In this document: piece by piece, positions 14,262 through 36,854 of the stretch | Layout: each line of letters opens with the position of its first letter | How positions within the stretch are numbered: the stretch's first letter is position 1 | Assembly (NCBI GenBank): GCA_029762535.1 | Contig: JARVGK010000002.1 | Coordinates: forward strand, 64,001 to 128,000 | Length of the DNA stretch: 64,000 bases | Origin: Thermoplasmatota archaeon | GTDB lineage: Archaea > Thermoplasmatota > Penumbrarchaeia > Penumbrarchaeales > Penumbrarchaeaceae | Direction: 5' to 3' | Program-made: the position numbers and the translations under genes | The notes under the pieces: model-generated | The model's database searches: none | What the model was told of the DNA's origin: nothing | What the model saw: the letters and a program-made list of their open reading frames with translations, nothing else

Positions 14262-14873
14262 ATGACGAACCTTGAGAAAATGCTCATTGAGGCGGGCCGG
14301 TTCCACGGCCACATCTGCCCAGGACTGGCCATCGGAGTGGTGGCTTCTTACATTGCTCTTCGTGACGCGCGGCGTTCCGATGACGAGGAATTGGTGGCCA
14401 TCGTGGAGAATGATGCTTGCGGTGTTGATGCCATTCAGCACCTCACCGGATGCACCTTCGGCAAGGGAAACCTTGTGTTTCGGGACCATGGCAAGTCCGT
14501 CTATACATTCCTGAACCGAGCCACAGGCAAGGCCCTGCGCCTTTCTCTCGACCATTCCGCGATCGAAAGCAGCTTGCACGATCGTGAATTGTTCGAAAGC
14601 GTCCGCAATGGAACCGCAACTCCAGGGGAGATAGATGCGTTTCATGTTCGCTGGGAGGAGCGCGCCAGGGAGGTCCTTTACCGTGCTGGATCACTTTTCA
14701 AGGTCGATCAGGTGGACATTGCCTTCCCTGAGAAGGCCCGGATACATGACAATATTACTTGTGATAAGTGCAAAGAGCAAGTAATGGCCACCCGGATCGT
14801 GGAGACGGAACAGGGGCGCAAATTCTGCATACCATGCTCCGAAGAGAAAAAAGAAAAGGAGTATGGAAAATGA
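14262..14873 (+). CDS. fmdE: FmdE family protein (formylmethanofuran dehydrogenase subunit E-like) with C-terminal zinc finger
   Basis: FHGHICPGLAIG, ENDACGVDAIQHLTGCTFGKGNL, CDKCKE...CIPC. Confidence 0.85.
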   Translation: MTNLEKMLIEAGRFHGHICPGLAIGVVASYIALRDARRSDDEELVAIVENDACGVDAIQHLTGCTFGKGNLVFRDHGKSVYTFLNRATGKALRLSLDHSAIESSLHDRELFESVRNGTATPGEIDAFHVRWEERAREVLYRAGSLFKVDQVDIAFPEKARIHDNITCDKCKEQVMATRIVETEQGRKFCIPCSEEKKEKEYGK

Positions 14874-15964: not shown

Positions 15965-15991
15965 AATGACTGAAAACTCGGGAAGTTCCAT

Positions 15992-17866: not shown

Positions 17867-17933
17867 TCTGGCAACCCGGTCCAAGGATGGAGTGGGTGCC
17901 ACCCTCGAAGATCCATGGCCGTGGGTTATCCGA
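17867..17933. repeat. Degenerate att-like hairpin
   Basis: aacccggtccaaggat...atccatggccgtgggtt, followed by gttatccgatccga, which is identical to the sequence at 22008. Confidence 0.45.
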
Positions 17934-17952
17934 TCCGAACGGAGTGATCCAT

Positions 17953-18050
17953 TAGGATAACGGGTGGGGACATGCGACGTTGCCGAAGGCAATGTCCCCC
18001 TGGGCGCAGCGGCCCGCAGGGGCGCGGAGGCGTGTCCGCAAGTTAGACAA
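17953..18050. repeat. attC-like hairpin
   Basis: ataAC-ggg-TGGGGACATGC-gacgtt...GCGTGTCCGCA-a-GTTag, followed by the conserved gcgagagcgcag linker. Confidence 0.75.
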
Positions 18051-18161
18051 CCCGAGAGAAGCGAGAGCGCAGTGTGGTCGTGCACCGCATCCGAAGGCGA
18101 GGAGCGCAGAAGTTTCTAATTCTCCTGAACCACAGGGCTTGGCGTAGTTTTCAATAACCGG

Positions 18162-19544
18162 TTATGTTTCGTGAGGGGGAGTCTCATCCACCACTAACTC
18201 ATACCAGACATTGTTCCCACCGCCCTTTTTCACAATCTTGCCTTCCCTGATAAGTTCATTCAGGTCACGGAGGGCGGTGCCTCTGTGAATAGAGAAATGA
18301 TATTCAATGTCTTCTGCCATTATTCTCTCTTTAGCTTCAATAAAGTCCATAATCCACTTCAATCGATTTCCTTTGCGTTTGTTCCGCATTTGTATCTGTT
18401 CTTTGTCCGTTCTGTGCCCGATTTCCTTCGGTTCAGCTTCGGATTTGCTTCGGATGTCACGATGGAAGACGGCACTGAAAAAAGAACCAATCTCAAAATC
18501 GATTCCGAGATCGTACTCTTTCATCGATTTTCTCATCCTTTTAATGCCGGAGCCAGCTTTTTCCACCAGACCAAGTCTGTGAACCATGTCAGTTAAGAGA
18601 GGGTTTCTCTGAGCACTCCGTTTCCCCAGGTCTTCTTCCGGAAACAACAGCTTTCCCGGGTTCACTATTTCCACCCGCTCGGGGCTGATGTGTACCTGGA
18701 TGTTCGAGGAATAGAGATAATCCCTGTGTATCATTGCGTTTATGATGGCCTCCCGCAGGGCATCTTTCGGAAGCTCCAGCTTCGCGGTATGTTTCAGGCC
18801 GTCGATGATTATGGCAGTGTTCAGCTTTGACAGAAGATAATTGTTGGCGTCGTTCAGATTGGTGGCGAAGTCTACAGAGAATTCCTTCGAGTCTATGATA
18901 TCGATCTGCTCTTTATCGGCATACAGGAAGCAGGCCACCGTCGCATTGGGGAAATGTGATTTTACGTCCTTGGAAAAGAACAGAACGCCGCAGTTGTTCA
19001 GCTTTCCATTGGTCAGCAGGTTCAGGTTGCTCAGAATATGCTCTTTCGACAGGTCGCCGTCCAGCCCTGCTTCCTTCCGGAATCTGGCAAACGCGTCTTC
19101 TGAGAAATCCCGGTCTTTGAAATCAATGGTGTTTCTCTCGAAGGAGATGAGGTTCTCCTTCTGGAACAGTTCCCTAATCTCGTCCCTGTTCAGCTACTGG
19201 GAATTGGCGCCGTACCTCAGATAGAAGTGGCCGTTCACGGTGTAGGGCTTGTCCTTCCCTTCCGAGACGTATATCACCACCATATCTCTAACCTGCTCGA
19301 TCCGGGCATTGAAGGCGGGGTTCATGTTCCTGGCGATGTCTTGGATCTTCGACCTGTCGGAATTGGTCAGCTTGTAGCCTTTTATATCACCGGTCCTATC
19401 CTCAACACCGATTATTATCTTACCGCCGGAGGAGTTGGCAAAAGCACAGATGTCCTTTTCGATGGTACTGCTCAGCGACTCCTTCAGCTCGATGGTGTAG
19501 CCCTCACCGGTTTTCACGACATCAACAAGTTCTTCGTAGTTCAT
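18162..19544 (-). pseudogene. Schlafen/AlbA_2 + HATPase_c_4 + wHTH protein (RecG-like regulator family) interrupted by one in-frame TAG
   Basis: ORFs 19194-19544 (GEGYTIELKE, ICAFANSSGGKIIIGV) and 18162-18938 (ALREAIINAMIHRDY, RNPLL, EKAGSGI) are in the same frame; only the TAG at 19194-19196 separates them. Confidence 0.85.
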
Positions 19545-19678
19545 ATCTCAACCCCGAGTTGTTCTTCCATCATGATCTCGAACTGCCTTGAGATTAGCAA
19601 CCCCTTCTTCTTGCAATGCTCTTTGTATTTGTCGTATAGATCGGAATCCACGCTCAAAGTGACGTTTCTTGACGGCAT
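19541..19678 (-). CDS. Small RHH/CopG-like protein (45 aa), cassette leader gene copy 1
   Basis: Manual translation MPSRNVTLSVDSDLYDKYKEHCKKKGLLISRQFEIMMEEQLGVEI; ATGA overlap with the next gene; two homologs in this window. Confidence 0.85.
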   Translation of the reverse strand: MPSRNVTLSVDSDLYDKYKEHCKKKGLLISRQFEIMMEEQLGVEI

Positions 19679-19914
19679 GTTATCACATTCACAGGTAAAT
19701 GTCTGCATTGTTATTTAAATGTGTATGATCCGTAACCCACCCTCACTCCGGTTATTGAAAATTTAAATCGAGAGTTAGCGAGCCATTTAATGTGTGTTAT
19801 GCCTGGTTGCGTAGCAACCGAGTATCTGTTTCTTCTGGTGTTTCGTTAAACGAAGCCAAGCCCGTTTCTGGTGGTTCAGGTTCCACGATTAAAAGGAGGG
19901 GAAAATTAGGATTT

Positions 19915-19985
19915 TCGGATAACGGACGCGGCTAACCGAAGTTCGTGGGGAGAAGGTGCTTTAGCACCCGAAGCCTTAAAATGAG
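19915..19985. repeat. Damaged attC-like site (left arm intact, right arm deleted)
   Basis: tcggataacggacgcggctaaccgaagtt matches the left arms of other sites; only ttaaaatga remains of the expected gttaaatga core. Confidence 0.65.
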
Positions 19986-20133
19986 GTCGAGGCTTCGGTT
20001 CCGAAAATCATCCTGCCGCCGTAGTTTTTTCTTGCTCTGTTTTTATTCATCTTTTCGTTATCCGTCGTGGGGGGTGTTCCGGTATTCTCTATTCTGCTTG
20101 TTTTTTTCCAAAATGCCTCAATACTCGTATGCT

Positions 20134-21542
20134 TCATATAATCTCCCAGCGTCCTTCCTTTCGACCGCCCGTGCGTCTGAGCAAACCATCGGATTGCAGT
20201 TTTTGGATGTTTCGTTCTATTGATCGTTCAGTAACTCCTATAAGAGAAGCCAGTTCAGGAATTGTTATTGTGTCGTTCTTTTCGATCTCCTGCAATATCT
20301 TTCCTGACGTTTTTCCAACGCTTTCCCGACGCTTTCTCTGGCGATTCCTGTATATAAAAGCGGAATCGCGGTAGTGAATACCGGTCCATCCATATACTTT
20401 GGAACGCCGTCGGGCGTGTAATGAGGTAGATACTTCCCGATATTCATCATCCCGGATCCAATTTCTTCCACCCAGCTCAGTTGTGCAAAGAACTTTGCAA
20501 TAACGGGATTCTTGGAGAAGGGCACCACTTTTTCGGGGTCAAGGACTCCCTCGACCCTGTAGTTGCTTGCGTTAGTGGTTTCTACACGATCTTTGTAAAT
20601 TATCAATCGGGCTGGATGGGCGTTCATGTATTCGCGATGCACCAGAAAATTAGCAATAACTTCCCGGAATATCTTATCGCGTAGACTTATCCTAGCGTCT
20701 CCTTCCAGGTAAAATGGGTCTGGAAGATGTTTGGCAATAAAGGCCATGAGCCGGTCGTATGCTTCAATGAGATTGCAATCTATACGGTCGCGGTCGTCAT
20801 AATGGTCCATCTGAACCCGGCGAACCATGGCATCGATCTTGTAATGAGGTAAAACACTCCGTATGGTCTCGTCTTTTCCCAGTAGCAGGATGGCAGCAAG
20901 GGTATAGCCCTCATTCCCGGTTTCCTGATCCTTTCTGAAAAGCCCGGCCTTGAGCAACAGCTGCTCATCGTCCAATTCTCTCCACGGATGATTCGGTCCA
21001 CGGGTTAATATGAGATTACGAAGCCTGGGCAGCATGTCCAAACGCAAATCGTCAAGAGTTGTGGCAGAATAAATTATGTTCTCGGTGTATGTCGCCCGCT
21101 TCCGGTTACTAATCTCCGCGATCCGGTGGGGCTGGGTCACACGGAAATCGCCATCATTGCTTCGGTCGAAGACAACACCGTTGGTTTTATGCACCTAGGA
21201 ACTAGCAGGCACTGAAATATGCATGATCTTCTTTCCATCAAGAACATGTATAACGGGATGGAGGATGAACGGCGGATCCAGCTTTTGAGTATTATTGGAA
21301 AGATTGACCATATCTGTTTTCATCTTATCGATGGATTGCGGATCGATTCCCAATACCCTTCCTTGATCATCAACTCCGAGAAGAATGTCTCCTCCGTCCC
21401 GGTTCAGCATTGCACATATTGTTTCGAATAAACTCGTGGGAAGAGATTTTCTTGCTTCCTTGTATTCTACCCGGATACCCTCGCCCATTGCAAGCAGATG
21501 TTTAAGGCGAATTTGCATCGGGTCACTTTGCATTTTTCTCAT
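20134..21542 (-). pseudogene. Schlafen/AlbA_2 + HATPase_c_4 + wHTH protein with in-frame TAG and C-terminal frameshift
   Basis: VPASS*VHKT with TAG at 21195-21197; IFREVIANFLVHREY; the HTH ILQEIEKNDTITIPELASLIGVTERSIERNIQKL...RWEII lies in another frame ending at 20134. Confidence 0.85.
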
Positions 21543-21672
21543 CCTCTTTCATCTGTTCTTCCATCATGATCTCGAACTGTCTTGATATGAGCCAACCTTT
21601 CCTTTTACAGTAATCTCTGTATTTATTATAGAGATTTTCATCGAACCTTAAAGTAACGTTCTTTGAAGGCAT
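21523..21672 (-). CDS. Small RHH/CopG-like protein (49 aa), cassette leader gene copy 2
   Basis: Manual translation MPSKNVTLRFDENLYNKYRDYCKRKGWLISRQFEIMMEEQMKEDEKNAK. Confidence 0.85.
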   Translation of the reverse strand: MPSKNVTLRFDENLYNKYRDYCKRKGWLISRQFEIMMEEQMKEDEKNAK

Positions 21673-21916
21673 TTTAATCACTCACTGCACATACTTACAA
21701 ATGCATATAAATGCATCATTTTTGTTATATGACACCCCCCCCACGCCCGTTGAGCAAGAAAAATTTGGGTGAGCGGAGCGAACCATTTAACCGGTGTTAT
21801 ACTGGGTTGCGAAGCAATCTGGCACATGTCGTTATTCTCTTTTCGTGTGGGTTAAACGAAGGCGGCAGGAATAGATGATTTTCGCTTGTCTGGCCAATGC
21901 CGGGAGACGAAAAATT

Positions 21917-22016
21917 TCATTTAACGGACGCGACTATGCGAAGTTGCGTAGCGAAGCGGAGCAATTTGGGTCGAGCGAAGTGCAACGAGCGAGCCGTATA
22001 GTCGCGAGTTATCCGA
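21917..22016. repeat. attC-like hairpin
   Basis: ttAAC-gga-CGCGACTATGC-gaagtt...aatttgggt...gcc-GTATAGTCGCG-a-GTTat. Confidence 0.9.
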
Positions 22017-22060
22017 TCCGAGCTATGCGAGGATGAGCATCTTTGATGCGAACGTCGGGT

Positions 22061-22483
22061 TCAGTGGTTTTTATTAGCTATATTAAAGAGTTCTTTCGTC
22101 GAGAATCTCTTTAATTTGTCCTGTCTATCAAAATCCTTATCTTCAGTCCATATCCCACTTGCCTTAACCGCCAAACCTAAAGCTAGAAAGGGCGTATCTT
22201 TAATATCGATATCTTTCATGATTTCTTCAGCGAGTTCAAGATGATCTATGAATACATCCGATGGAATCAATTCGATTCTCTCGAGAATTGATAATAATAT
22301 GATGTCAAATTCTCTATCGGTTAACTTTGATTTTTCGATTAGGTAATGTCGATATTTTTCTATCTCTGTTATTACGTAATCTGGAGCAATAAAATTGAAC
22401 TCCTCATTGAAGATGATCTTTCTTGTTTGTGAATCTTTGATCAATCCAGCCATGATTCTATTTGAATCTATGACCATCTTCAT
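22061..22483 (-). CDS. PIN-domain (VapC-like) toxin
   Basis: VIDSNRIMAGL, EIEKY, DIKDTPFLAL, IWTEDKDF. Confidence 0.9.
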   Translation of the reverse strand: MKMVIDSNRIMAGLIKDSQTRKIIFNEEFNFIAPDYVITEIEKYRHYLIEKSKLTDREFDIILLSILERIELIPSDVFIDHLELAEEIMKDIDIKDTPFLALGLAVKASGIWTEDKDFDRQDKLKRFSTKELFNIANKNH

Positions 22484-22713
22484 GCGGATTGCTTCCTTTT
22501 GTAATGTTTGTAGATGCCTTCTTTGACCTTTTCATCGAGAGCCATGACTTCTTCTTCAGTCAGTTCGCTCTCTTGAGTCAAAGAGTCAAGCAATGCCAAC
22601 TTCTTTGCATAATCGGATATTGCCCTTCTAGCAATCTCGCTCCATCTGATCTCGCTGTGTTGTTTCATGATCACATGAATATCTGAAGGTACCGATAGGG
22701 TTATGTTGGGCAT
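22480..22713 (-). CDS. RHH-type antitoxin (VapB-like)
   Basis: MPNITLSVP...EIRWSEIARRAI; ATGA-coupled to the PIN gene. Confidence 0.8.
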   Translation of the reverse strand: MPNITLSVPSDIHVIMKQHSEIRWSEIARRAISDYAKKLALLDSLTQESELTEEEVMALDEKVKEGIYKHYKRKQSA

Positions 22714-22730
22714 ATGATTACCACACAGGC

Positions 22731-22755
22731 ATATGTGATATCACATATTTATTAA
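22731..22755 (-). promoter_or_regulatory. TA promoter: TATA-like box plus perfect 18-bp palindromic operator
   Basis: atatgtgatatcacatat (22731-22748) is self-complementary and abuts TTAATAAA on the minus strand upstream of the antitoxin ATG. Confidence 0.7.
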
Positions 22756-22779
22756 TTGCCGTAACCACTGAACCCGATG

Positions 22780-22879
22780 TCGGATAACGGACGCGACTAT
22801 GCGAAGTTGCGTAGCGAAGCGGAGCAATTTGGGTCGAGCGAAGTGCAACGAGCGAGCCGTATGAGCGCGAGTTAAGTTC
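22780..22879. repeat. attC-like hairpin
   Basis: Identical to the 21917 site from taacggacgcg through gagccgtat; ends in GTTaagttc. Confidence 0.9.
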
Positions 22880-22972
22880 CCCGAGCCGAAGTTATCCGTA
22901 AGGATAACGTAGGCGAGAGCGCAGCGTGGTCCGGAGTTATCGAAGATAACGACGGAAGTTGACCAGGATCAA

Positions 22973-23143
22973 TTAAGAAAACAATATCAAATATACAATG
23001 AATATCAGTATTATACTAAGGAGAATATAAAAGGGAATACTCTTGCCTTTTTTTGCTAAATAGATTAATAACCCTATAATAGCAAGGATAAATGAAAGAA
23101 GACAACATCCCGGAATTAATAAAAAATATGTTGGCATTCCCAT
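22973..23143 (-). CDS. Small two-TM membrane protein (56 aa), single-gene cassette
   Basis: Manual translation MGMPTYFLLIPGCCLLSFILAIIGLLIYLAKKGKSIPFYILLSIILIFIVYLILFS; AGGAG SD 7 nt upstream; fills the cassette exactly. Confidence 0.75.
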   Translation of the reverse strand: MGMPTYFLLIPGCCLLSFILAIIGLLIYLAKKGKSIPFYILLSIILIFIVYLILFS

Positions 23144-23174
23144 TAATATTCTCCTGTAAAAATGCTGGTCAATT

Positions 23175-23274
23175 GAACTTAACGGACGCGACTATGCGAA
23201 GTTTGCGAACGTAGTGAGCAAATTTGGGTGAGGGGCGGGCCGAGCCCCGAACCGCATAGTGGCGTGTTATTCGC
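23175..23274. repeat. attC-like hairpin
   Basis: ttAAC-gga-cgcgACTATGC-gaagtt...aatttgggt...aacc-GCATAGTggcg-t-GTTat. Confidence 0.9.
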
Positions 23275-23344
23275 CCCGAGCCGTAGGCGAGAGCGCAGCG
23301 TGGTCCGAAGTTATCCGAAGGATAACGAAGGAAGTTGAGGGGGT

Positions 23345-23743
23345 CTAATGCCCGGATAAGAATTCGGAAGATTGAATGATCCTCACGCTATCATATTGCT
23401 TGATCTTCAGTAAATGATTATCTCCCGAAATGATATATTCAGCCTTTCCTAAAATTGCTGTTTCCAAGACCATGTTATCCTTTGGATCATCTTCGATGAC
23501 ATATAGAGAATCTGTTATGAAAACGAGATCAGACATCAAGATCAAACTTTGAATGAAAGCATGGATCTTATCATCCGGGACATGGAACTTTTTTCGAAGA
23601 ACCATCTCAGTTTCTGAAAGAATCTGTTCGGAGGTGACAGATCTTATTTTTCCTGACTTGCATCTTGTCAATAATGACCTTTCATTCCCATTCCAGAAAA
23701 AGCCAGAGATGAGAATGTTCGAATCAAGGACTATCCGGACCAA
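23345..23743 (-). CDS. PIN-domain toxin (PIN_3 type)
   Basis: IVLDSNILISG, DDPKDNMVLETA, YIISGDNHLL. Confidence 0.9.
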   Translation of the reverse strand: MVRIVLDSNILISGFFWNGNERSLLTRCKSGKIRSVTSEQILSETEMVLRKKFHVPDDKIHAFIQSLILMSDLVFITDSLYVIEDDPKDNMVLETAILGKAEYIISGDNHLLKIKQYDSVRIIQSSEFLSGH

Positions 23744-23746
23744 AGA

Positions 23747-24013
23747 TCAATTCTCCTTGGATCTGATTTCCTTTATTGCTTTAAGTACATCTGATTTCTT
23801 TAACATCTTCTCCTTGGCGAAATCACTTCCCCAATGGAGAAGATTTTGGAAATCCTCATCGGTGGGGATGTCGATCTTTTTCAGGACTATCGTTTCGTTC
23901 TCTCCATACATGGCAAAGAACTCACCGGGTTTGAATCCGAGGAGTTCGCGAAGGTCTTTCGGTATCACGATCTGCCCTTTGGAGGAGAGCCTTGTGATGG
24001 TTACTTCGGACAT
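23747..24013 (-). CDS. AbrB/MazE/SpoVT family antitoxin
   Basis: TRLSSKGQIVIPKDLRELLGFKPGE; inverted repeat agtaaga-cca-tcttact (24021-24037) just upstream of the ATG. Confidence 0.9.
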   Translation of the reverse strand: MSEVTITRLSSKGQIVIPKDLRELLGFKPGEFFAMYGENETIVLKKIDIPTDEDFQNLLHWGSDFAKEKMLKKSDVLKAIKEIRSKEN

Positions 24014-24087
24014 GGTAATAAGTAAGACCATCTTACTATTTCATTTTTTCGGGTACTTGTAGACGATCACATTAAACCCCCGAAATT

Positions 24088-24182
24088 GCGAATAACGTCC
24101 TGGGGATATGGGAAGTTGGCCGAAGGCCAATTTGGGTGAAGGGTCTGCAAGACCCGTAACCTCATATCCCCATGTTATCTTC
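24088..24182. repeat. attC-like hairpin
   Basis: atAAC-gtcc-TGGGGATATG-ggaagtt...aatttgggt...aacct-CATATCCCCA-t-GTTat. The stem sequence differs from other copies but still pairs. Confidence 0.9.
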
Positions 24183-24322
24183 CCCGAGCGATAGCGAGAG
24201 TGCAACGGGGTCGAGGCACGAAGTGCCGAAGAAGTTTGAAACCCTGCCGTAAATTCCGTTGTTGCCGTAGTTTTTTCTTACTCTATTCATCGTTCACGTT
24301 CTCCGTGGGGGTGTTCCGTTTA

Positions 24323-26920
24323 TCATGCTTTCAACTCTAATTTTTCATTAAATGCTCCAATGAAATTTGTTTTCAGATCTTCATTGTAGAATGGAAGCCC
24401 GATAATTTTGTATTTCGTATTTTCTGCCAGTATCTCGATTTGATAATTTCCTTCAATGTTTGTTAGGAATTGCTGTTTCCAGTCATCTTTTTCAAGTAAG
24501 TGACTTCCTTTCGGTTCGATGAAAACCTGGTAATAGAGAATTTGTTTGGTTTTTTTCTCTTTTAAGAATAGGACAAAATCTGGTTCAAGAGAATTTCCAT
24601 CTGAAAAGCGATAAAGCTGGAAAATTTTCTGGTTTCTAAGTAGATATATATCTGAATATCTTTTTTGTAATTTATCAATTGCATCGTTTATGAATCTTAC
24701 AAAGTATTTCTCTTCTGATGTTCCATAATTTTCTTCATATACATACCAGTCCTTGTTTTTTAGGTCTAATCGTAAATCTAGTTTTAGAGTTTCACTCATC
24801 CCAATACCGATTTCTTTGTCAGATGTGTCATTTACTGCGATATTGATTATTTTGTCTTCTACTAAATCTTTAATTTTGCTTGCTTTGAATAATATAGTCC
24901 CGACATATTCAGTATAACCAGATTCGATATTGCTTTGAAGTTTCTTCAAAACCTCTGTACATATTTCCAGTTTATCATCACAATTGAGTGAATCTAATTT
25001 TGTAATTGAAGTCGTTACCTCTACCTGAACATCTTTTAAAGCTTCAATGAACTTGCTGATAGATTTTGATTTAGGGAAATATTTTTTCAGGTTATTAAAT
25101 TTGTAAAAATCCAACCTGGTTAGAGATTTTCGCATAATTTGAATTCCGAAGTCGTTCAGTTTAAAAATCTTTGATCTTTTCTCTTCAACATCTTTCTTCT
25201 TTTCCCCGTTGAATATAGTAGAATCTCTAACATATCCTGTTCTGAGACCAATTTTATACAATTTATCGATGTCCAAATCTGATATATCCTTGATTTTAGT
25301 TCTATCTGATTTTTTCTTTTCGTTGATGAATATCAGGCCATTAGACCAAAAATCTGATTTCTTAAACCCATCTTTGACTTTCAAATGGATTTCTCGCTTT
25401 TCCGGTGGCATGATGCCAGATTCCACCAAAGCTGTAGTCAATTCTTGAATGTATCTTGGGTTATGGGCACTGTGGTAATAAAGCTCTTCAAGAATTTTCA
25501 ACTCGTTGTTTGGTTCCTCATCGTATTTTCTCTTGAATCGCTCCTGTTCATCTGTTATTGTGAAAGGAAAATATCTAGCGCCTCTCCCGATAAGTTGGGC
25601 TTCTGCGATGGTCGTTTTACCAGGCTTCCCTGCTTTTGCATCTCTAGTATCATAAAGTCTTACAATGTCAAATAGATTGAGAACATCCCAACCTTCGTTA
25701 AGCATACCGACTGCAAAAACAACCCGAATTTCGTTATCTTTATCCTCAAGCGAATTAACTAGTAACTGTTTCTTTTCACTCTCACTTTTAGAATTGACTG
25801 ATAAACACTTATTCTCATGAAATTCTTCTTTAATCTCTGATACCAAATTCTCCAATGTAATGTCATTTTCTTCAAAATAATTAAAAGCCGTATTAAGAAT
25901 CGATTTTTGTTCAACATTGTTTTTTATTTTTGATATGTCGCTAATTTTCAAGGATTTGATCTTTTTCTTAAATTCATCTTCAATAGTGGTAGATTCATCA
26001 ATGGTTCTGGATTTCAACAGGATTACTGGCTTAATAAATTTCTTATGCTTTTCTGCAATCTTTCGTCTATATTGACTTAGGATGACTGACTGTAATGTCC
26101 TTTCTATTGGCTTTAAATCTGCCTCCATCACTTTGACTTCCTTTGAATACCCGTCTAATCTAAACTGTTTTAATGAGTAATCATAGATTATTTTACTATC
26201 GTATTTATCTCTAATTGCTGGATGACTCAAATCAACGGTGGCGGTATACTCCAGCATGATATTTCCCAGGTTTGAATTGAAGATATTATTTACGGTATGT
26301 TCCCAGGTAGTTTTGGCTAATTTTTCTTCCTTACCCAATTTATTCTTTGTCCAAGCATTGATATGGTGGGCTTCATCGGAAATGATTACGATTTTTTTAT
26401 CCTTGAAGTCCTCGTAAGTCATGCTGTTCTCGCGCGGGGTATTCATGAAACAGTGAAGCCCCTGGATTGTGGTAAAATGGATATTGATCGCATCAGGGTT
26501 AGCACCCTCGAAATTTTCTACCGGACTAATGAAAACCTCTTTTTCTCCAAATTTTATGTGTTCGTTGAACAGATATTTTGATGAAAGTAGATTTAAGAAA
26601 TTATCTTTAGTCTTTTCTATGATGTTGGTACTATTCACAAAGAAAAGAAAATTCCGATAACCTTTCTCATAAAGATAGAGAATATTGGCGGCCATCAATA
26701 ATGTTTTTCCGCTTCCAGTGGCCATGTGAAACAGCAATTGCGTTGGTTTGATTCTCCTTTTATCTTTTTCATAATTATAAATGAATCTGCGTATAGCTTC
26801 CAGTTGATATTCTCTCAATTCAAACAAATGATTCAGATTATTTGTAATATTGTCTGGAATCTCAGTACCCAGCAAGCCCTGTTCTGAAAGAACATCATAC
26901 GTTTCCTTCAAAGTGGGCAT
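24323..26920 (-). CDS. res: Type III restriction enzyme Res subunit (DEAD/DEAH helicase + PD-(D/E)xK)
   Basis: HMATGSGKT, SDEAHH, LNEGWDVLNLFDIVRL, QLIGRGARYFPF, EPDF...IEPKG. Confidence 0.9.
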   Translation of the reverse strand: MPTLKETYDVLSEQGLLGTEIPDNITNNLNHLFELREYQLEAIRRFIYNYEKDKRRIKPTQLLFHMATGSGKTLLMAANILYLYEKGYRNFLFFVNSTNIIEKTKDNFLNLLSSKYLFNEHIKFGEKEVFISPVENFEGANPDAINIHFTTIQGLHCFMNTPRENSMTYEDFKDKKIVIISDEAHHINAWTKNKLGKEEKLAKTTWEHTVNNIFNSNLGNIMLEYTATVDLSHPAIRDKYDSKIIYDYSLKQFRLDGYSKEVKVMEADLKPIERTLQSVILSQYRRKIAEKHKKFIKPVILLKSRTIDESTTIEDEFKKKIKSLKISDISKIKNNVEQKSILNTAFNYFEENDITLENLVSEIKEEFHENKCLSVNSKSESEKKQLLVNSLEDKDNEIRVVFAVGMLNEGWDVLNLFDIVRLYDTRDAKAGKPGKTTIAEAQLIGRGARYFPFTITDEQERFKRKYDEEPNNELKILEELYYHSAHNPRYIQELTTALVESGIMPPEKREIHLKVKDGFKKSDFWSNGLIFINEKKKSDRTKIKDISDLDIDKLYKIGLRTGYVRDSTIFNGEKKKDVEEKRSKIFKLNDFGIQIMRKSLTRLDFYKFNNLKKYFPKSKSISKFIEALKDVQVEVTTSITKLDSLNCDDKLEICTEVLKKLQSNIESGYTEYVGTILFKASKIKDLVEDKIINIAVNDTSDKEIGIGMSETLKLDLRLDLKNKDWYVYEENYGTSEEKYFVRFINDAIDKLQKRYSDIYLLRNQKIFQLYRFSDGNSLEPDFVLFLKEKKTKQILYYQVFIEPKGSHLLEKDDWKQQFLTNIEGNYQIEILAENTKYKIIGLPFYNEDLKTNFIGAFNEKLELKA

Positions 26921-26921
26921 G

Positions 26922-28928: not shown

Positions 28929-31405
28929 TTCTTTTCCTCCTTATTATTCGAAATTAAATTCCAGTTTACGCTTCCACAATTACATCTTACGCCACTTTGT
29001 TTCATTCCATCTGCTGTAATTTTCAATATACCACCACAACTATGACATGAAAAGAGATAATATAAATCTTGAAATGCCTCTTTTATAGGTCGAAAGTCTT
29101 TATCACTAAAGTTTATCCAATTATTAAAATGAACGTTTGCATTAATTCCCCATTGTTCAGCATATGTGCGTTTATAAATGCTAGAACGCATTGAATCTAA
29201 TTCTTCAAATTTTGCCGTCTTTTCTGATTTTTCCCAGGAAACTGATGATTTTTTAGCCTTTTTAATTAAGTCCTTATATCCATCCATTAATGGTATTGTA
29301 AAATCACCAAGATCTAGCTGGCCGTTTAATTTGTATCGTACTCGTATCTGTAATGAATCACACACTAGCCCAAAATACTCTTCCAAACCGCGTCTTAATC
29401 TCGAAGCAGCAGAAGGAACATCGTTTCTTGTCAAATCTTCTTCAATTTTACTCCAGAGGTCTGCTTGAAGATTTACTTGAGGCCCTGTATCAACTTTCCA
29501 ATTATAGAATTCAACCATGCAACTCTTATTATCAACAACTCCTTCACTTCTCATTTGATTAGCCCATGTCTTATCATGGGTTGTGATTAAAAATTGTCTG
29601 TTTGGGAAATTTGATGCAAGCACGCGACAAATATCTCGCCTATGATTCGAATCCACAGACATTATTACATCATCTAAGATAATGAGGTCAATAAGACCTT
29701 CTGCCAAACGTTCAGATAGAGCCAAATATAAACAAAGCCCCATACTATCTTGATGACCTTCACTGTGGAGGGCTTGTGGAGAAAAAGCCCCTCGGCCATA
29801 AAAATCAACTTCAAATTTTAATGCCGCCCCATCTGGTGAAATAGTCGCGGAAAAATCTTTTTCGTCTGAACCATGTAATTCTTTATATAATTGCACAAAG
29901 CGATCATTTACATCTTTGTAAAGATTTCCCAATATAGTATCTCTGGAATATTCAAATGTATTTAACAATATCTCTGCTTTTTTATATGAGATACTTGCGT
30001 TTTTAAAATCATTTTTTGCTTTTTCAAGACCTTTTAAATTTTCTTCAAGGCGTGTTAATGTATCCCACGCAGTTTGTTCAGGGGTTATCGGTGGCGCTTT
30101 GGTTTTAACAATTTCTATTAGAGTTTGAAGATTTTGTTTAATTTCCTCAGAAATAAGCATGTGTTTTACTCTGTCGCTATCAAATTCGATCAATGGATAT
30201 TTTTCGAGTGGATTAGCTAATGCTATGGATAACTGATTCAAATCTGACGAACATGTTTTCAATTGGATGCTCCATTCCTTTTCCTCAATTTTATTTAATA
30301 CCTCAATTATTTTATTTATGCTTCCTCTTGTATTGTTCACACGCTTTGATATGGAATCGGACAAAGATGTAATTCTGTTTCTTTGTTGTGATATTTCTTC
30401 AATATCAGTCAATTTTGAGGTAAGATATTCATCTAATTTACCGCTTGGCCACTGTGTATCACACAATGGGCAGTTACCCGTGTCATCGATCATAGATTTT
30501 CCAAGTTCAATTAATTGAAATCGATTGTATGTTTTCAATAATTTCGGATTCGATTTTATAGAGTTTAGAAGATTTCTAAGTTCTTTATCAAATTCAATGA
30601 TTCCTTTTTGATTCTTTTCGTCAAAGGAATTATGAATATTTTGAATATCTTTTTCAAATATAGTAAGATTGACATGATTGTCGTTGATAATACTGGTAGG
30701 TGGCGTAAGGGCCTTTTTTAACGTATCTGAAGAAACCGAATTCAATTCATTACTTTTTAATGTTTTACGTAATTGATTTACGTAATCCAGTAGCATCTTT
30801 TCATTAAATGATGTTGTTTGAATTGTTGCGTTAACCTCACCTTTTTTCTCATCTATTGCTTCTTCTTTTGTCTGCTTTTCTCTTTTAAAAGTATTTTCAA
30901 TATTTACAAATGCTTTTCTTATTATTTCAATGTCTGATATATTTAATAATGCTTGAATCTCCTGGGCACGTGTACTACCATCAGAGGTAATATATTTTAA
31001 AATTTCTCGTCTTGTTAATACATGTTCTCCCCTCGATGCAAGGGATAAAATGGGTTCAAGATTAGGTAAATATTTTTCATCAGATACAACTAACTTAGTG
31101 GGTTGTGCCATATCTCTTTTTATTTCAATAGGAACATTAATTTTTGGAAATTGAATAACTGCACGTACAATAGCATCTTTTGGCTTGTGATCAATATGTG
31201 GGCCACATTCTTTCAATTTGATATTGCGAGTTCCCTCTCCCTTTAAACGAGAAATTCGACCTGTTAAGAGGAAATCAATGGCATCAACAACAGCACTTTT
31301 CCCTGAACCATTTGGCCCCCATATTACTATATTTTTTCCTTGGGGCGTTAGTTTTATATGGGTTATACCCCGCACATTTTCAATTTCAAGCTCAATCAGT
31401 TTCAA
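28925..31405 (-). CDS. Rad50/SMC-like ABC ATPase with zinc hook and possible C-terminal HEPN (RloC-like)
   Basis: GPNGSGKS, coiled coils, CPLC hook, HSEGHQ signature, ILDDV, ITTHD; C-terminal LRRGLEEYF...INANVH. Confidence 0.7.
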   Translation of the reverse strand: MKLIELEIENVRGITHIKLTPQGKNIVIWGPNGSGKSAVVDAIDFLLTGRISRLKGEGTRNIKLKECGPHIDHKPKDAIVRAVIQFPKINVPIEIKRDMAQPTKLVVSDEKYLPNLEPILSLASRGEHVLTRREILKYITSDGSTRAQEIQALLNISDIEIIRKAFVNIENTFKREKQTKEEAIDEKKGEVNATIQTTSFNEKMLLDYVNQLRKTLKSNELNSVSSDTLKKALTPPTSIINDNHVNLTIFEKDIQNIHNSFDEKNQKGIIEFDKELRNLLNSIKSNPKLLKTYNRFQLIELGKSMIDDTGNCPLCDTQWPSGKLDEYLTSKLTDIEEISQQRNRITSLSDSISKRVNNTRGSINKIIEVLNKIEEKEWSIQLKTCSSDLNQLSIALANPLEKYPLIEFDSDRVKHMLISEEIKQNLQTLIEIVKTKAPPITPEQTAWDTLTRLEENLKGLEKAKNDFKNASISYKKAEILLNTFEYSRDTILGNLYKDVNDRFVQLYKELHGSDEKDFSATISPDGAALKFEVDFYGRGAFSPQALHSEGHQDSMGLCLYLALSERLAEGLIDLIILDDVIMSVDSNHRRDICRVLASNFPNRQFLITTHDKTWANQMRSEGVVDNKSCMVEFYNWKVDTGPQVNLQADLWSKIEEDLTRNDVPSAASRLRRGLEEYFGLVCDSLQIRVRYKLNGQLDLGDFTIPLMDGYKDLIKKAKKSSVSWEKSEKTAKFEELDSMRSSIYKRTYAEQWGINANVHFNNWINFSDKDFRPIKEAFQDLYYLFSCHSCGGILKITADGMKQSGVRCNCGSVNWNLISNNKEEKK

Positions 31406-31595
31406 GTTCTTCCCTCGAAGTAGTTTTTAATACGCTGATAATTTTTTTAGTATCAGCTAATTGTCCTGTTGAATTAAGTTCACGAAGCTTATTGATGGTC
31501 ACCACATTAAATTCATCTTTATCATTGAGGTCTGAAAACATTTTATCAAGTATGTGGTCAATCAATGAAGATGTTTGTATTGTTTCGGGAGTCAT
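31392..31595 (-). CDS. Small hypothetical protein translationally coupled to the ATPase
   Basis: 67-aa ORF overlapping both neighbours, with a GGAGGT SD. Confidence 0.65.
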   Translation of the reverse strand: MTPETIQTSSLIDHILDKMFSDLNDKDEFNVVTINKLRELNSTGQLADTKKIISVLKTTSREELETD

Positions 31596-31732
31596 TTATT
31601 TACCTCCTTCATCTGTTCTTCCATCATAATTTCAAATTGTCGGGATATGAGCCACCCCTTCTTCTTACAGAATCCTTTGTATCGTTCGTAAAGGTCTTCA
31701 TCAACACTGAGGGTTACGTTCTTTGAAGGCAT
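31592..31732 (-). CDS. Small RHH/CopG-like protein (46 aa), cassette leader gene copy 3
   Basis: Manual translation MPSKNVTLSVDEDLYERYKGFCKKKGWLISRQFEIMMEEQMKEVNK; ATGA overlap; CTTATATA TATA box upstream. Confidence 0.85.
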   Translation of the reverse strand: MPSKNVTLSVDEDLYERYKGFCKKKGWLISRQFEIMMEEQMKEVNK

Positions 31733-31993
31733 GATAATCACATTCATCTCCAAATGTCAGCAAATGTATATAAGTATTCGCTTTTTCCGTTTCTATTCGT
31801 TGTTCGGAACACCCCCCACGTCCATAGAGTAAGAAAAAATTTGGGTATTCGCTTTGCGAATCCGTTTAACATCCGTTAGCCGAGAGTCTGGACTTGTCCA
31901 GATTTTGGTGGTTCTTTCCGTCTTGTTTCCGTTAAACGAAGGCAACAACGTCATGAATTTACGGTCTCCTTTTCATAGGCATGGTTTCAAATT

Positions 31994-32111
31994 GAAGATA
32001 ACGGAACGCGGGTATGCGAAGTGAATATGTTTCCAGTGCGGTTCCTCAGCAGAGTATTCATTTGGGAGAGCGAGTGCAACGAAGCGAACCGCATACCCGC
32101 GTGTTAAGTCC
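31994..32111. repeat. attC-like hairpin (most proximal)
   Basis: atAAC-gga-ACGCGGGTATGC-gaagt...atttggga...aacc-GCATACCCGCGT-GTTaag: perfect 12-bp stem with a 3-nt bulge next to the core. Confidence 0.9.
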
Positions 32112-32434
32112 TCCGAATGAAGTTATCCTACGGATAACGAAATGAGAATGCAATGAGATCGAGCACCGCAGACCGTTAGGTTGAGGAGCGGAGAAGTTGG
32201 CCAGCCAAGAACGTTGTTCGGGACACGGTGGATTTTTTACTACCAATCTACCCCACAAGGGTTATAGGTCGAGGGTGTCTTGCTTGTAAGTCGAGGGGTT
32301 TGAAATACTTGTCAAACCAAGATTTGACCATGGCGAGGTTTACTATCTTTTGGGTTATCGTTCTGACCATTATTATTTTAGAGTTGCAATATGATTTGTT
32401 CAAATTTTCTGATGAATTCGTAAGTAAAAGAGAT

Positions 32435-35400
32435 TCAATCCTCCTCCTTTATTGGTTTGATGGTTCGAAGGTTCAAAGAAAAAGATCGCCCCTCGATATT
32501 TTCTTCTGGGATATCATCATATCTCGTTATAATAACCTTATCATCAACTTTATCACTGAGGTTTTCCACATTCCATAACTCCCATCGATCCCCACCTTCT
32601 TCCTGACTTAAAAGGAATTCCACATATTCCCTAGAGGTTATGTTTACAATTTTGGAAGAACCTAAATGTGCCTTGACTTCGATCTTAATTTGTTCTCTAT
32701 CACGAATAGCAATGATATCATAGCCTGGATTCTGTTTGGGCATTTGTTCAACTTCGAATCCTTTTAATTCTAACTCTCTTTGAGCAAATGATCTTCCTTT
32801 AGTTTCTATCATCTCATTGTCCTCATATGATGTTCTGTTCCCAGATTTGCCACCACCACCGCCACCAGATGAACCCTTAGTTTCCTCATCAACTCTCTCC
32901 TCTGTATTAACTTCATATTCAGAGTCGTCATCCTTTAATTGAATACCTTCATCTTCCTCTGAATCTGGAGTTCTTTCTTCTCTATTTTGCTCATCAAGTA
33001 ATTTTTCCTTATTGTCTTCTTCACTTTTTGTCGGTTGTTTCGGCTTTTTAGGAAGCATACCAGGAAATGGCTTCTTCGATGGTGGAGTTGACTTTTGTTG
33101 ATCAGAGTCTTTGTGTTTTACATAGTCGTTATTGAATTCTAAAAAAGAGATATCGATCTGTTCATCTGATATTCCGCTGGAAGTCAATTTTTCTCGTCTT
33201 TCGTAATCATTATTACACCTTAAAAGATTTTCATAAGTGTCGGCTTCTCCTGGCACTCCTAAATAAAACGATATTGATCGAGATATTGTAGTTACACTTT
33301 GTTTATCTTCACTTATGAATATTGTTGAACCAACAATGTAAAAATCTCCGGATATTTCGGTTTCATACTTATCAAGTAGTATCAATTTTTTTCGAATTTC
33401 CTTTTTTACTTTAACTTTGATATTTTTAATTCTTTGAATCAATTTCTGATGATCTGATAGTTTATCCGATCTTATCACATATATGTATGAAAGACTGTCA
33501 ATTAGATTTTTCGCCAATTCCGGTTTCAATTGTTTCTCATCATCATTTGTCTCAATTATTTCTTCCTTCAATATATTCTTATCACTAATTTGACGTTTTC
33601 CAAAATACTTACTTACAAACTGGTGATATCTTCTAGATATATTGAAAAAATAAACATCATTATTAAAAGCATTTTTAATCTCCACATCATCATTAATGAA
33701 TATCTCTTTGCTACTTATAATTTGAAATATATTGCTTCTTTCACATAAAAGGGGACAATCATGAAGCAATAATTCAGGAAGTGCTACCATCAAACTATTT
33801 GTTGTATCTAAACATCTTTCGTAGATTTTCATTATTTTGAATCTTAATTCTCGATTATCATTTATATCTTCATCTGAAATGAATTTTATTAATAGGTTGG
33901 ATAATATTTCTTTCCATTCTTCAGGTTTTAATTCATCAATATTTGTTCTAATAATTTTCACTTTATTCTTTAACCAATGAAAAATATTATCCTTTGAACT
34001 CTCAAAAAGATTTAAATTGATAACTGGTAATAAATACCCTATTTCAAAATTATCTTTTTCATTTAATATCCAACATTCTTCCAATGGTTTAGGATCTAGA
34101 TAATGTGTAAGAGGAGGTATGAACTTTGTTTTTAAATCAAACCACCATGATGCATCTGAGTTTCCATAATATAATGCTCTGTTGTATGGTCGATAGTGTA
34201 CTCGAATATTCATATATTCTTCATAGTATTCCCAATTGTTTGCTATTAACTTTAATAAGGATATTTTAGATTTTTCAGGCAATTCGTCTAAATTTATTTT
34301 ATCAAATCTTTTATTATAACTGATTTTTTCAACATTATTATAATCTTCATTCACATGTATCGGAATTTCTTCTGTAGAAATTAATCGGGGAAATGTTTTA
34401 CACCCTAACCATCTTAAGATATCTTGATCAATTATTTTCTCTAAGCTATTGTTTTCTTTTTGTACCCATTGTATATCGTAATGATTGCGAAATAATGAGT
34501 TCAAATCACTATTGCCCCATTCTTTTCCCATATATCCAAATTTGGCTTTTATCCATATAACATCTTTTTTCCCCTTCCTTCTAGATGGAATTGGACAATT
34601 TCTAATTCCTACGGGTGCATTTTCTTCTTTCATCAACCATTTATTTTTATAGATATATCGATAATATATTGAGGGATTATCTTTTTGATTCTTGTTCCTA
34701 CTATCCCAATAATTCTCAATAGCTTTAATTAAAGCTTTTTCTGTAACATTTTCAATTCTCTCTACACCCAATGTTGCTAGGATTTTGTTGACTGAATGAT
34801 GGTTTTCCAATAACTTATCCCCAAACCATTCATCAACAAACACTATCGGCATCCATTTAGGTACGAGATTTTTCTTGTCTTGATCAGATTTCCAAGTGAT
34901 GATTTGACCCTTTGAATTGGCAATTGATATCAGATGATTACCAACAGGAAGTATTGGTAGACTTTTTATAATCTCAATTTTCTCCTCTTCATTGATTTCA
35001 TCTGAATCATGATTAGCCCAATTAGAGAGCCATTTCCAACAAGTCCAAATCCAATCAATATTTCCTGTATTTTTAGATGACTCTTCATTGATTACACTTA
35101 GTAACGTATTATCATCAATCAAACTGCAGTTCATGGATTTTAAAACGTTATATGAAACTTCATTCTCCTCATAACTGAAATGTAACAAGTTGTCACTAAT
35201 ATTTGATGTATTTAAAATTTTACGGGCGTTTGTCAAATCACATGTTGTTGATATAAGCTTTATATCAGAGAAATTTAATAATTTTTCTCCATTAATATTG
35301 CCGAATTTTAAAGTGTTCTTTGAATAATCAACAATCACATCCCAAAATAATTTGGTGATTTCATGACTGTTTCTCTCCTCAAATGGTGATAACAATGTAA

Positions 35401-36532
35401 TATTATTTGCTGGATCACCTTTTAAATATTGCTCATCCACAAATTCAACTAATGTATGAACGAGATTATCCATTATCCATTTATTTAGATTATTATTCTC
35501 TATCGGAAGAATTTCCGTTCTATCACTTTTTACAAAAAAATCCGCATGAAGAAGTATTGGAACTGGGGAGTAGTGTTTTGTCGGATAATACACATGGATT
35601 TTTGGGTAATCGGTCATAGATCTGATTTTACCATCAATGACATATGTACCAACCAGGAAATTAATTCCATCTTCGATAATTCTCGCATTATCTTCTTTAT
35701 CAAGGTTAGATAAGAAATAAGGTGGAATCATATCACCCGACATCGTTTTTCGTTTGATTTTCCATTTCGTTACATCTTCAACGCCATCAATGGTATCATT
35801 GATTACATTTTCCTTATCTATTGTTATTTTCCTTAAGGTTTTACTTGAACCAACAGCATCAATTATCTCCAACATTCTAATATGATGAAATGTTAGGAGA
35901 GTATAATTTTTCAATGAAATTTTATCAAATAATACTTCGTTATCAATTTCCTCAAGATAATTCAATTTAACTACAGTTGACCAATCCGATTGAGAGGTTA
36001 GATATTGATCATTCAAAGAAATATCATCCCAGGATATCGAAAAAGGGATCCATTGATATGGTACATCATCATCTGGAAAACCATTATTTTGTAACCATTG
36101 TTTCGCCTTTTCAAATGAGAATTCTACTCCCTCTCCTCCTATGCTAAATATTTGTGGATTATTTGAAATCTCATAAACAGCTTTGAATCCTAATCCCTTT
36201 CTTCCGATGGTCCCAGATTTTTTAATTGAATAATCCGTTCCACACAAAGATTCAATAGCATCTGGCTGTAATCCTACTCCCTTATCCAAGATATAGACCG
36301 ATTTATCGGTCAACAAAACCTTTACCTCTTTAGATTCTGCATCATCACAATTTTGGAATAATTCGTAAAACCATCGTCCAGTGTGGTCAGAAGTTACTCT
36401 TTCTGCACTTCTTGTGTCTCTGATGATTCGTTTGGGATCTCCTTTATATGTCCCTTGTAATTTTTGGTTGAATAAATCAATTGCCTTTTTAATAGGTTTC
36501 AATATACTATCACCATCGACATACACAATCAT
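32435..36532 (-). CDS. Sacsin/Nov-like GHKL ATPase with C-terminal DUF3883 (PD-(D/E)xK) domain; first cassette
   Basis: YELFQNCDDA, IGRKGLGFKAVY, LLHADFFVKSDR; C-terminal PGYDIIA...KIEVKA; visibly AT-rich. Confidence 0.8.
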   Translation of the reverse strand: MIVYVDGDSILKPIKKAIDLFNQKLQGTYKGDPKRIIRDTRSAERVTSDHTGRWFYELFQNCDDAESKEVKVLLTDKSVYILDKGVGLQPDAIESLCGTDYSIKKSGTIGRKGLGFKAVYEISNNPQIFSIGGEGVEFSFEKAKQWLQNNGFPDDDVPYQWIPFSISWDDISLNDQYLTSQSDWSTVVKLNYLEEIDNEVLFDKISLKNYTLLTFHHIRMLEIIDAVGSSKTLRKITIDKENVINDTIDGVEDVTKWKIKRKTMSGDMIPPYFLSNLDKEDNARIIEDGINFLVGTYVIDGKIRSMTDYPKIHVYYPTKHYSPVPILLHADFFVKSDRTEILPIENNNLNKWIMDNLVHTLVEFVDEQYLKGDPANNITLLSPFEERNSHEITKLFWDVIVDYSKNTLKFGNINGEKLLNFSDIKLISTTCDLTNARKILNTSNISDNLLHFSYEENEVSYNVLKSMNCSLIDDNTLLSVINEESSKNTGNIDWIWTCWKWLSNWANHDSDEINEEEKIEIIKSLPILPVGNHLISIANSKGQIITWKSDQDKKNLVPKWMPIVFVDEWFGDKLLENHHSVNKILATLGVERIENVTEKALIKAIENYWDSRNKNQKDNPSIYYRYIYKNKWLMKEENAPVGIRNCPIPSRRKGKKDVIWIKAKFGYMGKEWGNSDLNSLFRNHYDIQWVQKENNSLEKIIDQDILRWLGCKTFPRLISTEEIPIHVNEDYNNVEKISYNKRFDKINLDELPEKSKISLLKLIANNWEYYEEYMNIRVHYRPYNRALYYGNSDASWWFDLKTKFIPPLTHYLDPKPLEECWILNEKDNFEIGYLLPVINLNLFESSKDNIFHWLKNKVKIIRTNIDELKPEEWKEILSNLLIKFISDEDINDNRELRFKIMKIYERCLDTTNSLMVALPELLLHDCPLLCERSNIFQIISSKEIFINDDVEIKNAFNNDVYFFNISRRYHQFVSKYFGKRQISDKNILKEEIIETNDDEKQLKPELAKNLIDSLSYIYVIRSDKLSDHQKLIQRIKNIKVKVKKEIRKKLILLDKYETEISGDFYIVGSTIFISEDKQSVTTISRSISFYLGVPGEADTYENLLRCNNDYERREKLTSSGISDEQIDISFLEFNNDYVKHKDSDQQKSTPPSKKPFPGMLPKKPKQPTKSEEDNKEKLLDEQNREERTPDSEEDEGIQLKDDDSEYEVNTEERVDEETKGSSGGGGGGKSGNRTSYEDNEMIETKGRSFAQRELELKGFEVEQMPKQNPGYDIIAIRDREQIKIEVKAHLGSSKIVNITSREYVEFLLSQEEGGDRWELWNVENLSDKVDDKVIITRYDDIPEENIEGRSFSLNLRTIKPIKEED

Positions 36533-36716
36533 ACTTTAATCGTGGACCTTTGTTTATTTTTGCGGTCATAAACATCATTTTCCGAACTTGTTCTATGCTT
36601 TTACCATATTTATAAGCTTCTTTGCTTTCACCCAAGCTCCATGTTATTACACCCTCAACCTATTCTTTCCAAAAAATCCACCGTGTCTTTTTACCCCGAA
36701 GTCTGGCTGGCCAATT

Positions 36717-36742
36717 GGACTTAACTCCTATCATGCGATGTG
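36717..36742 (-). other. attI-like primary recombination site
   Basis: ggacttAAC (minus strand G|TTAAGTCC) complements the first cassette's own core at 32103-32111. It has no hairpin partner, keeps a catgcgatgt motif like the att left arms, and lies ~130 bp upstream of the integrase. Confidence 0.75.
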
Positions 36743-36854
36743 TTGGATCGGATACTTTCACTTTCACATGGTTATTGCGAAGATTTATTAACCCGGGATC
36801 CTCCTTTGGTTTCATGGGATCATACCCGGACATGGATAAGGAGATGGTGAATAT

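Follow-up and report, generated by a model that had tools for sequence, protein, structure and literature searches.

What do the paired ends of gene cassettes do in an array whose recombinase lacks I2, the insertion of integron integrases (IntI)? The question is raised by a 64,000-nt window of DNA (the whole stretch analysed; positions 64,001 to 128,000 of contig JARVGK010000002.1, assembly GCA_029762535.1) from a Thermoplasmatota archaeon, in which seven cassettes lie beside a short tyrosine recombinase. A preliminary description of the locus had proposed that long-range inverted repeats clamp the cargo of each cassette, loop it out in single-stranded DNA (ssDNA), set the specificity of single-cassette excision and replace the synapsis role of the missing insertion. 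That interpretation is partly supported. The repeats are a real, family-wide feature; we infer that their arms are probably parts of an extended attachment site that is complete in the excised circle.

All 28 of the arm sequences quoted in the preliminary description are present where it placed them, and the inverted repeats at the cassette ends are real at every such position. Seven exact inverted repeats of at least 14 bp occur between 17.9 and 36.9 kb. Four of the seven link both ends of one cassette (32222/36671, 17 bp; 24271/31824, 16 bp; 22055/22763, 15 bp; 18148/19748, 14 bp), and a fifth (20066/31805, 16 bp) joins the homologous ends of cassettes 6 and 2. When cassette ends were cofolded in a 7 × 7 matrix, the cognate partner was best for all seven cassettes (−9.5 to −40 kcal/mol). 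The pairs are cassette-specific in this sense, but not strictly so, as the left end of cassette 6 pairs with the right end of cassette 2 at −25.0 kcal/mol, compared with −27.3 kcal/mol for its cognate. Comparison with shuffled ends bore out the pairing for cassettes 1, 2, 6 and 7 (none of 500 unanchored shuffles was as high) and only weakly for cassettes 3, 4 and 5, for which 117, 18 and 40 of 500 shuffles, respectively, reached the observed value. The latter three are convincing only because the spacing between their arm and a perfect 9-bp core stem is fixed. Covariation of the arms was also confirmed: cassettes 6 and 2 differ by a compensatory exchange of G-C for A-T. Two features had escaped the preliminary description, namely the 9-bp core stems and an inner arm of cassette 2 (24235/31983). 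In a generic search for repeats, the arms were lost among chance repeats of AT-rich sequence.

The arms occupy a regular place in the junction between cassettes. Read along the plus strand, which is the bottom strand, a junction consists of the outer arm of the left cassette, a 2-nt spacer, a 5-nt flank and the core NAAC; a 2–3-nt asymmetric loop, an unbulged stem of about 10–12 bp and a branched tip; and then the core GTTN, a second 5-nt flank, an optional side-branch of about 20–85 nt and the outer arm of the right cassette. The flanks and arms match within one cassette, not across one hairpin. In general terms, a core stem of 9 bp leads into a 2-nt spacer, with the optional side-branch opposite, and then into cassette-specific arms of 8–17 bp. 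The spacer is TT in 28 of 30 cases and TG in the other two, and GAG or AAG precedes the arm in 21 of 30. The inner stem, in an ungapped 10-bp register, averages 9.2 of 10 pairs over 34 sites and has no extrahelical bases.

Strand exchange takes place between the A and the C of the conserved AAC. In a contig from an independent sediment study, position 19920 runs directly into 24094 inside the core; the joints found by contig mapping are single contigs of related strains, run X1 was left out of the support as the possible source sample, and the other runs hold small shares. A solo cassette at a secondary site (genome G000, contig C6, about 75700–76630) is bounded exactly at A|C. It is 88% identical over 917 nt to cassette 2 of the array in genome G004, and its core flank is perfect, with an outer arm decayed to about 10 of 17 pairs, compared with 17 of 17 in G004. 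The rearranged contigs and the shared cassette point indirectly to excision and integration, which the linked enzyme would catalyze. Because the site is split at A|C, the "clamps" are the two halves of one stem, which become contiguous in the excised circle. Circle junctions reconstructed in silico folded into single long branched hairpins (z of −3.9 to −15 relative to shuffles), and the bottom strand was the more stable in six of six. The features of the window, from the integrase leftward, are as follows.

36855–37655, plus strand: tyrosine recombinase of 266 aa (Phage_int_SAM_4 and Phage_integrase domains, no IntI/I2 insertion), divergent from the array.
36717–36775, minus strand: attI-like insertion site, core AAC at 36723–36725, second half-site 5 nt inside the core; in homologs it resembles a hairpin, here only weakly.
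36671–36725, plus strand: cassette 1 right half-stem; distal arm 36671–36687, arm 36704–36714, 2-nt spacer, core 36717–36725.
32435–36532, minus strand: cassette 1 cargo, a 1365-aa sacsin-like ATPase/NOV_C protein, TmtA-like in PADLOC (5.8e-66).
32103–32238, plus strand: cassette 1 left half-stem; core 32103–32111, side-branch 32112–32196, arm 32197–32207, distal arm 32222–32238.
31999–32106, plus (bottom) strand: cassette 1 att hairpin, with a 12-bp unbulged stem and branched tip.
31805–32002, plus strand: cassette 2 right half-stem; arms 31805–31819, 31824–31839, 31941–31964 and 31983–31991, core 31994–32002.
24323–31753, minus strand: cassette 2 cargo, a 53-aa open reading frame (ORF), an SMC-like ATPase (LmuB-like) and type III restriction-modification Mod and Res.
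24174–24318, plus strand: cassette 2 left half-stem; core 24174–24182, side-branch, arms 24235–24243, 24247–24266, 24271–24286 and 24304–24318.
24093–24177, plus strand: cassette 2 att hairpin.
24070–24096, plus strand: cassette 3 right half-stem; the cargo (23345–24031) is AbrB/MazE-like plus PIN.
23180–23350, plus strand: cassette 3 att hairpin (23180–23269) and left half-stem (core 23266–23274, arm 23335–23350).
23165–23183, plus strand: cassette 4 right half-stem; the cargo is a 56-aa hydrophobic ORF (22973–23143).
22785–22966, plus strand: cassette 4 att hairpin (22785–22874) and left half-stem (core 22871–22879, arm 22959–22966).
22763–22788, plus strand: cassette 5 right half-stem; the cargo (22061–22713) is a 77-aa ORF plus PIN_2.
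21922–22069, plus strand: cassette 5 att hairpin (21922–22011) and left half-stem (core 22008–22016, arm 22055–22069).
21740–21925, plus strand: cassette 6 right half-stem; arms 21752–21763 and 21861–21884, orphaned inner arm about 21904–21914. The cargo is AlbA_2 plus HATPase_c_4, split by an in-frame stop.
19920–20081, plus strand: cassette 6 truncated att hairpin; surviving distal arms 20002–20020, 20026–20037 and 20066–20081.
19748–19923, plus strand: cassette 7 right half-stem; arms 19748–19761 and 19855–19880, 5-nt core flanks pairing at only 2 of 5 positions. The cargo is again AlbA_2 plus HATPase_c_4, split by an in-frame stop.
17958–18161, plus strand: cassette 7 att hairpin (17958–18045), side-branch, arms 18124–18143 and 18148–18161.
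13849–14095, plus strand: a further att hairpin (13849–13933), accompanied by a side-branch and by a left half-stem that shares homology with its counterparts in cassettes 2, 6 and 7; it lies outside the range of the preliminary description.

The same pairing was found in homologous arrays, a check that the preliminary description had itself named. The set comprised 43 consecutive site pairs from 16 loci, including the window, with sites defined by hairpin and motif and not by the clamp; its cassettes are related, not independent, and the figures are descriptive. Core positions 4–9 were paired in 43, 39, 39, 39, 31 and 37 of the 43 pairs, positions 10–12 in only five or six, and all four Watson–Crick pair types occurred at positions 5–9. 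A perfect 5-nt flank was seen in 67% of cognate pairs versus 3.7% of non-cognate pairs within an array. Arms anchored on both sides reached at least 7 of 8 pairs in 20 of 40 cognate comparisons, versus 12 of 1560 non-cognate ones.

Loop motifs were used to ask which strand folds. GNA/GNA 3 × 3 internal loops and GNA triloops are stabilized by sheared G·A pairs in DNA. Eight such internal loops, from six independent arrays, lie on the bottom strand and none on the top, and GNA triloops are similarly skewed (65 bottom versus 13 top in side-branches, 48 versus 6 in hairpins). This asymmetry supports the view that the non-coding (bottom) strand would fold as ssDNA, as attC does (PMC5371416), and so agrees with the preliminary proposal that one strand folds; such folding presumably takes place in vivo. 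A wobble-pair test of strand choice was uninformative.

The recombinase belongs to a distinct family. Its catalytic residues R128, K153, R219, H242 and Y251 are invariant among aligned relatives, and H216 nearly so. All of these relatives lack I2; clamped cassettes co-occur with an insertion-less integrase, as had been suggested. The TIGR02249 integron-integrase profile gives 187 bits against a cut-off of 265, with the match in two stretches, and in alignment with a true archaeal IntI about 43 residues are missing. The XerA profile NF040815 gives 184.7 bits against a cut-off of 220, so the protein is not a XerA equivalog by that measure. Its nearest folds are IntI (2A3V) and XerA (5HXY), and in the tree its clade stands apart from IntI with support of 100/99. 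At least 1227 proteins among 8000 scored candidates fall within the family at E 1e-60 or better. It is patchily distributed, in 17 of 401 sampled Thermoplasmatota genomes, and occurs also in DPANN archaea; among named homologs of the integrase, the closest come from Thermoplasmatota. The system is present in two complete genomes, G087, which has attI alone, and G149, which has cassettes. A plasmid collection contained only distant relatives, and a metagenome scan with back-translated patterns returned mostly other recombinases.

Many loci of the family carry a conserved attI-like site 100–260 nt upstream of the integrase, with the core and the second half-site 5 bp apart. It takes the form of an inverted repeat of about 53 nt in several loci (L100:3813–3865; L083; L084; L088; L089; L208:9750). 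This site could fold as a hairpin, weakly so in the present window, whereas classical attI is double-stranded. A second insertion-less clade, with a longer integrase (L109), has the same design with a 14-bp arm. Beside an insertion-less integrase of Bacteroidota (L060:11800–12210) we observed cognate 5-nt flanks and a TT spacer, with only weak outer arms. One Terriglobia chromosome carries over 20 nearly identical copies of a related recombinase (40% identity; L012–L033, L039–L051), apparently as part of a multicopy mobile element; the placement of this recombinase as sister to the family is weak.

How far does this design depart from classical integrons? As in class 1 and Vibrio VCR systems (PMC5371416, PMC3053210), there is a divergent integrase, an attI, co-oriented cassettes and a folded AAC/GTT site; the G|TT crossover and complementarity of cognate starts and ends over about 9–13 bp are also shared with attC, and bottom-strand folding probably is. 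The control was small and without Vibrio-type arrays; it comprised 22 non-redundant cassettes, of archaeal, environmental and class 1 origin, that adjoin genes for a true IntI. In it, contiguous cognate pairing from the core had a median of 9.5 bp and reached 13. Classical IntI cassettes often had cognate end stems of 10–13 bp, longer than the textbook 7-bp box (L237, L246, L266, L292, L300). Short cognate-end pairing of more than 7 bp is thus routine in classical cassettes; it is the outer arms and side-branch that are distinctive. An outer stem of at least 9 bp was present in 1 of 22 classical cassettes versus 75% in the insertion-less family, and the median excess end-to-end energy was about 0 versus −8 to −9.5 kcal/mol. 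In contrast to classical attC, the core stem here is fixed at 9 bp and followed by the spacer/side-branch junction and the 8–17-bp outer arms, a 2–3-nt asymmetric loop lies beside the core, and the inner stem is free of extrahelical bases.

The enzyme differs from that of a classical integron in lacking I2, which docks extrahelical bases and impedes the second strand exchange (PMC7790495). Site and enzyme are mutually consistent, in that bulge-free sites accompany an I2-less integrase; the association spans two or three related clades and is not taken as causal. The array has beside it a recombinase with intact catalytic residues, an attI and co-oriented cassettes with a G|TT crossover, and it lacks the I2 insertion and extrahelical bases, the second under a detection that favored unbulged stems. 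Judged on sequence, it appears to work like an integron but fails two defining tests, and we do not file it as a classical one. The archaeal integrons of Ghaly et al. 2022 share an archaeal host, cassette arrays and an attI beside the integrase, and have IntIs with the IntI-specific domain (PMC9668308). Where arrays of this phylum do have a true IntI (G158, G203), their attC sites are classical and outer arms are absent.

Two other systems bear partial resemblance. Integrative mobile elements exploiting Xer (IMEX), such as the CTX phage, likewise use an insertion-less recombinase (XerC), exchange one strand pair on folded ssDNA and form its stem from separate segments, but they rely on host XerCD at dif (PMC3442271), unlike the dedicated enzyme here, which sits beside its own attI and array. 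Insertion sequences such as IS1111 also have inverted repeats, at or close to their two termini (PMC11187229); unlike these, the arms share no sequence between cassettes and keep a fixed register with the AAC/GTT core. No transposase was present among the scanned cargo genes, and the arms vary freely, unlike terminal repeats conserved within a family. Neither outer arms nor I2-less integrons were described in the literature searched, a coverage that did not extend to older subscription papers.

The extended-site reading, which we consider the probable one, would operate as follows. An integron-like platform would be run by a short tyrosine recombinase without the I2 helix. Its bottom-strand cut between A and C of AAC would split the outer stem, leaving one half at the cassette start and the other after the hairpin. 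In the excised ssDNA circle the halves would rejoin locally to give the inner stem, the 9-bp core duplex, the side-branch junction, the 8–17-bp outer arm and in some cases additional arms. The rejoined hairpin is probably the long duplex-like arm that an I2-less enzyme needs; it would probably also stabilize the excision product and make the circle a good attI substrate. In the array, the halves could pair across the cargo and, together with the two hairpins, make a three- or four-way junction that may help excision.

Several observations weigh against this reading. Because sites were detected with a filter for unbulged stems, the lack of extrahelical bases is in part a product of the method; in the window, L228 and G004 the chains of cognate cores are unbroken, which argues against bulged sites having been passed over there. 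Single arm mismatches show no strand bias (A·C 11, G·T 10). About a quarter of the cassettes have weak outer arms, and the side-branch is absent from some, so the full design is not obligatory. The distal arms of cassettes 2, 6 and 7, 150–200 nt from the core, exceed any recombinase footprint, and binding alone is insufficient to account for them. No circle was observed in the material mapped, which consisted of contigs.

The best-surviving alternative, which we nevertheless regard as rather unlikely, sharpens the preliminary proposal and places the action of the arms mainly in the array. With the cargo looped out, the clamp stem and the two flanking hairpins would together form a Holliday-like junction that a single strand exchange by an ordinary tyrosine recombinase would resolve, and partner selection and synapsis would be the work of DNA pairing. 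The cognate 9-bp stem between both hairpins is indeed the predicted minimum-energy fold for cassettes 1, 3 and 4 and resembles an excision intermediate, and to this extent the proposed looping-out of cargo stands; for cassette 2 the predicted array form has outer arms only, and the same arms fold locally in the excised circle. The preference for the cognate partner in all seven cassettes, the I2-less enzyme and its bulge-free sites would all suit pairing in the array, but the circle form explains every sequence feature equally. The flanks of a site pair at only 2.1 of 5 positions in the array, which would also suit it; classical sites, at 2.4 of 5, differ little and excise anyway, and the idea that array-form flanks are worse paired than in attC was dropped. 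The two longest cassettes of the window have the strongest clamps, a scaling with loop length that failed across the family (Spearman rho 0.00–0.12, p > 0.5, 31–32 cassettes). Neither this absence of scaling nor the cross-pairing of cassette 6 with cassette 2 fits the claim that pairing sets single-cassette specificity, and a loop of 7.8 kb would call for a long single-stranded tract or a pair of bubbles. Synapsis in the array by way of a junction formed beforehand is plausible all the same. Sequence does not separate the circle from the array state, and the extended-site and array-synapsis readings are not exclusive; we favor the circle as the state that matters more. We offer as a tentative idea that the ends of each cassette, base-paired in ssDNA, would assemble themselves into a Holliday-like junction; a plain tyrosine recombinase would resolve it in a single exchange, and DNA structure would do the job of I2.

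A more doubtful proposition is that the arms are a trace of cassette birth, with genes inserted into, or swapped within, the loop of an empty hairpin cassette and little later selection on pairing. Homologous ends enclose different cargo in cassettes 7, 6 and 2, and the left end at 13930 belongs to the same group; near-empty units of 115–237 nt occur, and the arm of the solo C6 copy has decayed. However, the homologous ends diverge widely in sequence and keep pairing, and the fixed 9-bp core and 2-nt spacer, together with the strand-specific GNA loops, indicate selection on structure; we judge this origin improbable as the main explanation. Pairing of the arms in RNA, between the 5′ and 3′ untranslated regions, to regulate cargo expression would fit arms that flank coding sequence and mismatches that do not favor the bottom strand, but is very improbable given structured purine motifs on the non-coding strand, no Rfam match in a scan of 17.5–38 kb, and an AT-rich promoter-like stretch between arm and gene in several cassettes, because of which a cassette's own transcript would lack the 5′ arm.

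On the extended-site reading, the locus bears on the origin of integrons. I2 is regarded as the innovation that enabled ssDNA recombination, and the lack of evolutionary intermediates is a stated limit (PMC7790495). The insertion-less family appears to shuffle cassettes without I2, on a different, longer site, which makes it possible to test directly how integrons arose and what governs the recognition of attC. If the self-assembling junction is true, the family would be a living model of a pre-I2 integron. Cognate end-pairing also offers an easily computed criterion for where one cassette stops and the next starts. Because the enzymes score under the cut-off of the IntI profile, archaeal cassette pools, in this case rich in defense genes, are probably undercounted.

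From 18.1 to 36.5 kb the genes are on the minus strand and mostly defense-like. Homologous ORFs of 52–55 aa without a Pfam match head cassettes 7, 6 and 2 (19541–19708, 21523–21681 and 31592–31753), and these three cassettes, with shared end sequences but different cargo, appear to represent a reusable cassette frame. The AlbA_2 plus HATPase_c_4 genes of cassettes 7 and 6 have a single in-frame amber stop each (19194–19196 and 21195–21197). The cassette 6 gene looks recently inactivated here, because contigs of three other runs differ in base 21197. Cassette 6 has also lost the GTT half, side-branch and inner arm near 19995–20000; a contig from another sediment has, before position 20000, both the end of a side-branch and the inner arm that was predicted. 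The local sequence suggests that this core-half loss may have been a fold-guided deletion. At 19990–20010 the deletion leaves a 9-nt segment complementary to about 19909–19917, just before the hairpin.

To the left of cassette 7, the unit starting at 13930 has no right partner at the expected place. A metal ABC-transporter operon (14238–17862, opposite strand) occupies the expected position of its cargo and right end. The loose end at 17958 in X6 was considered as a reshuffled cassette 6; it is better explained as the intact right end of the 13930 unit (core flanks 5 of 5). Ahead of the cassette 7 hairpin lies a 37-nt unit (17925–17961) with its own GTT and AAC cores, the flanks of which pair at 4 of 5 positions; it is possibly an empty or collapsed cassette, and its GTT flank is a perfect match to the start of cassette 7. 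The array continues leftward with a short ORF (13440–13802) and a decayed site near 13295–13340. Gene-less units of 115–183 nt with self-pairing ends were seen at the first array position in two genomes (L232:5390–5600; G149:C1, about 617550–617800).

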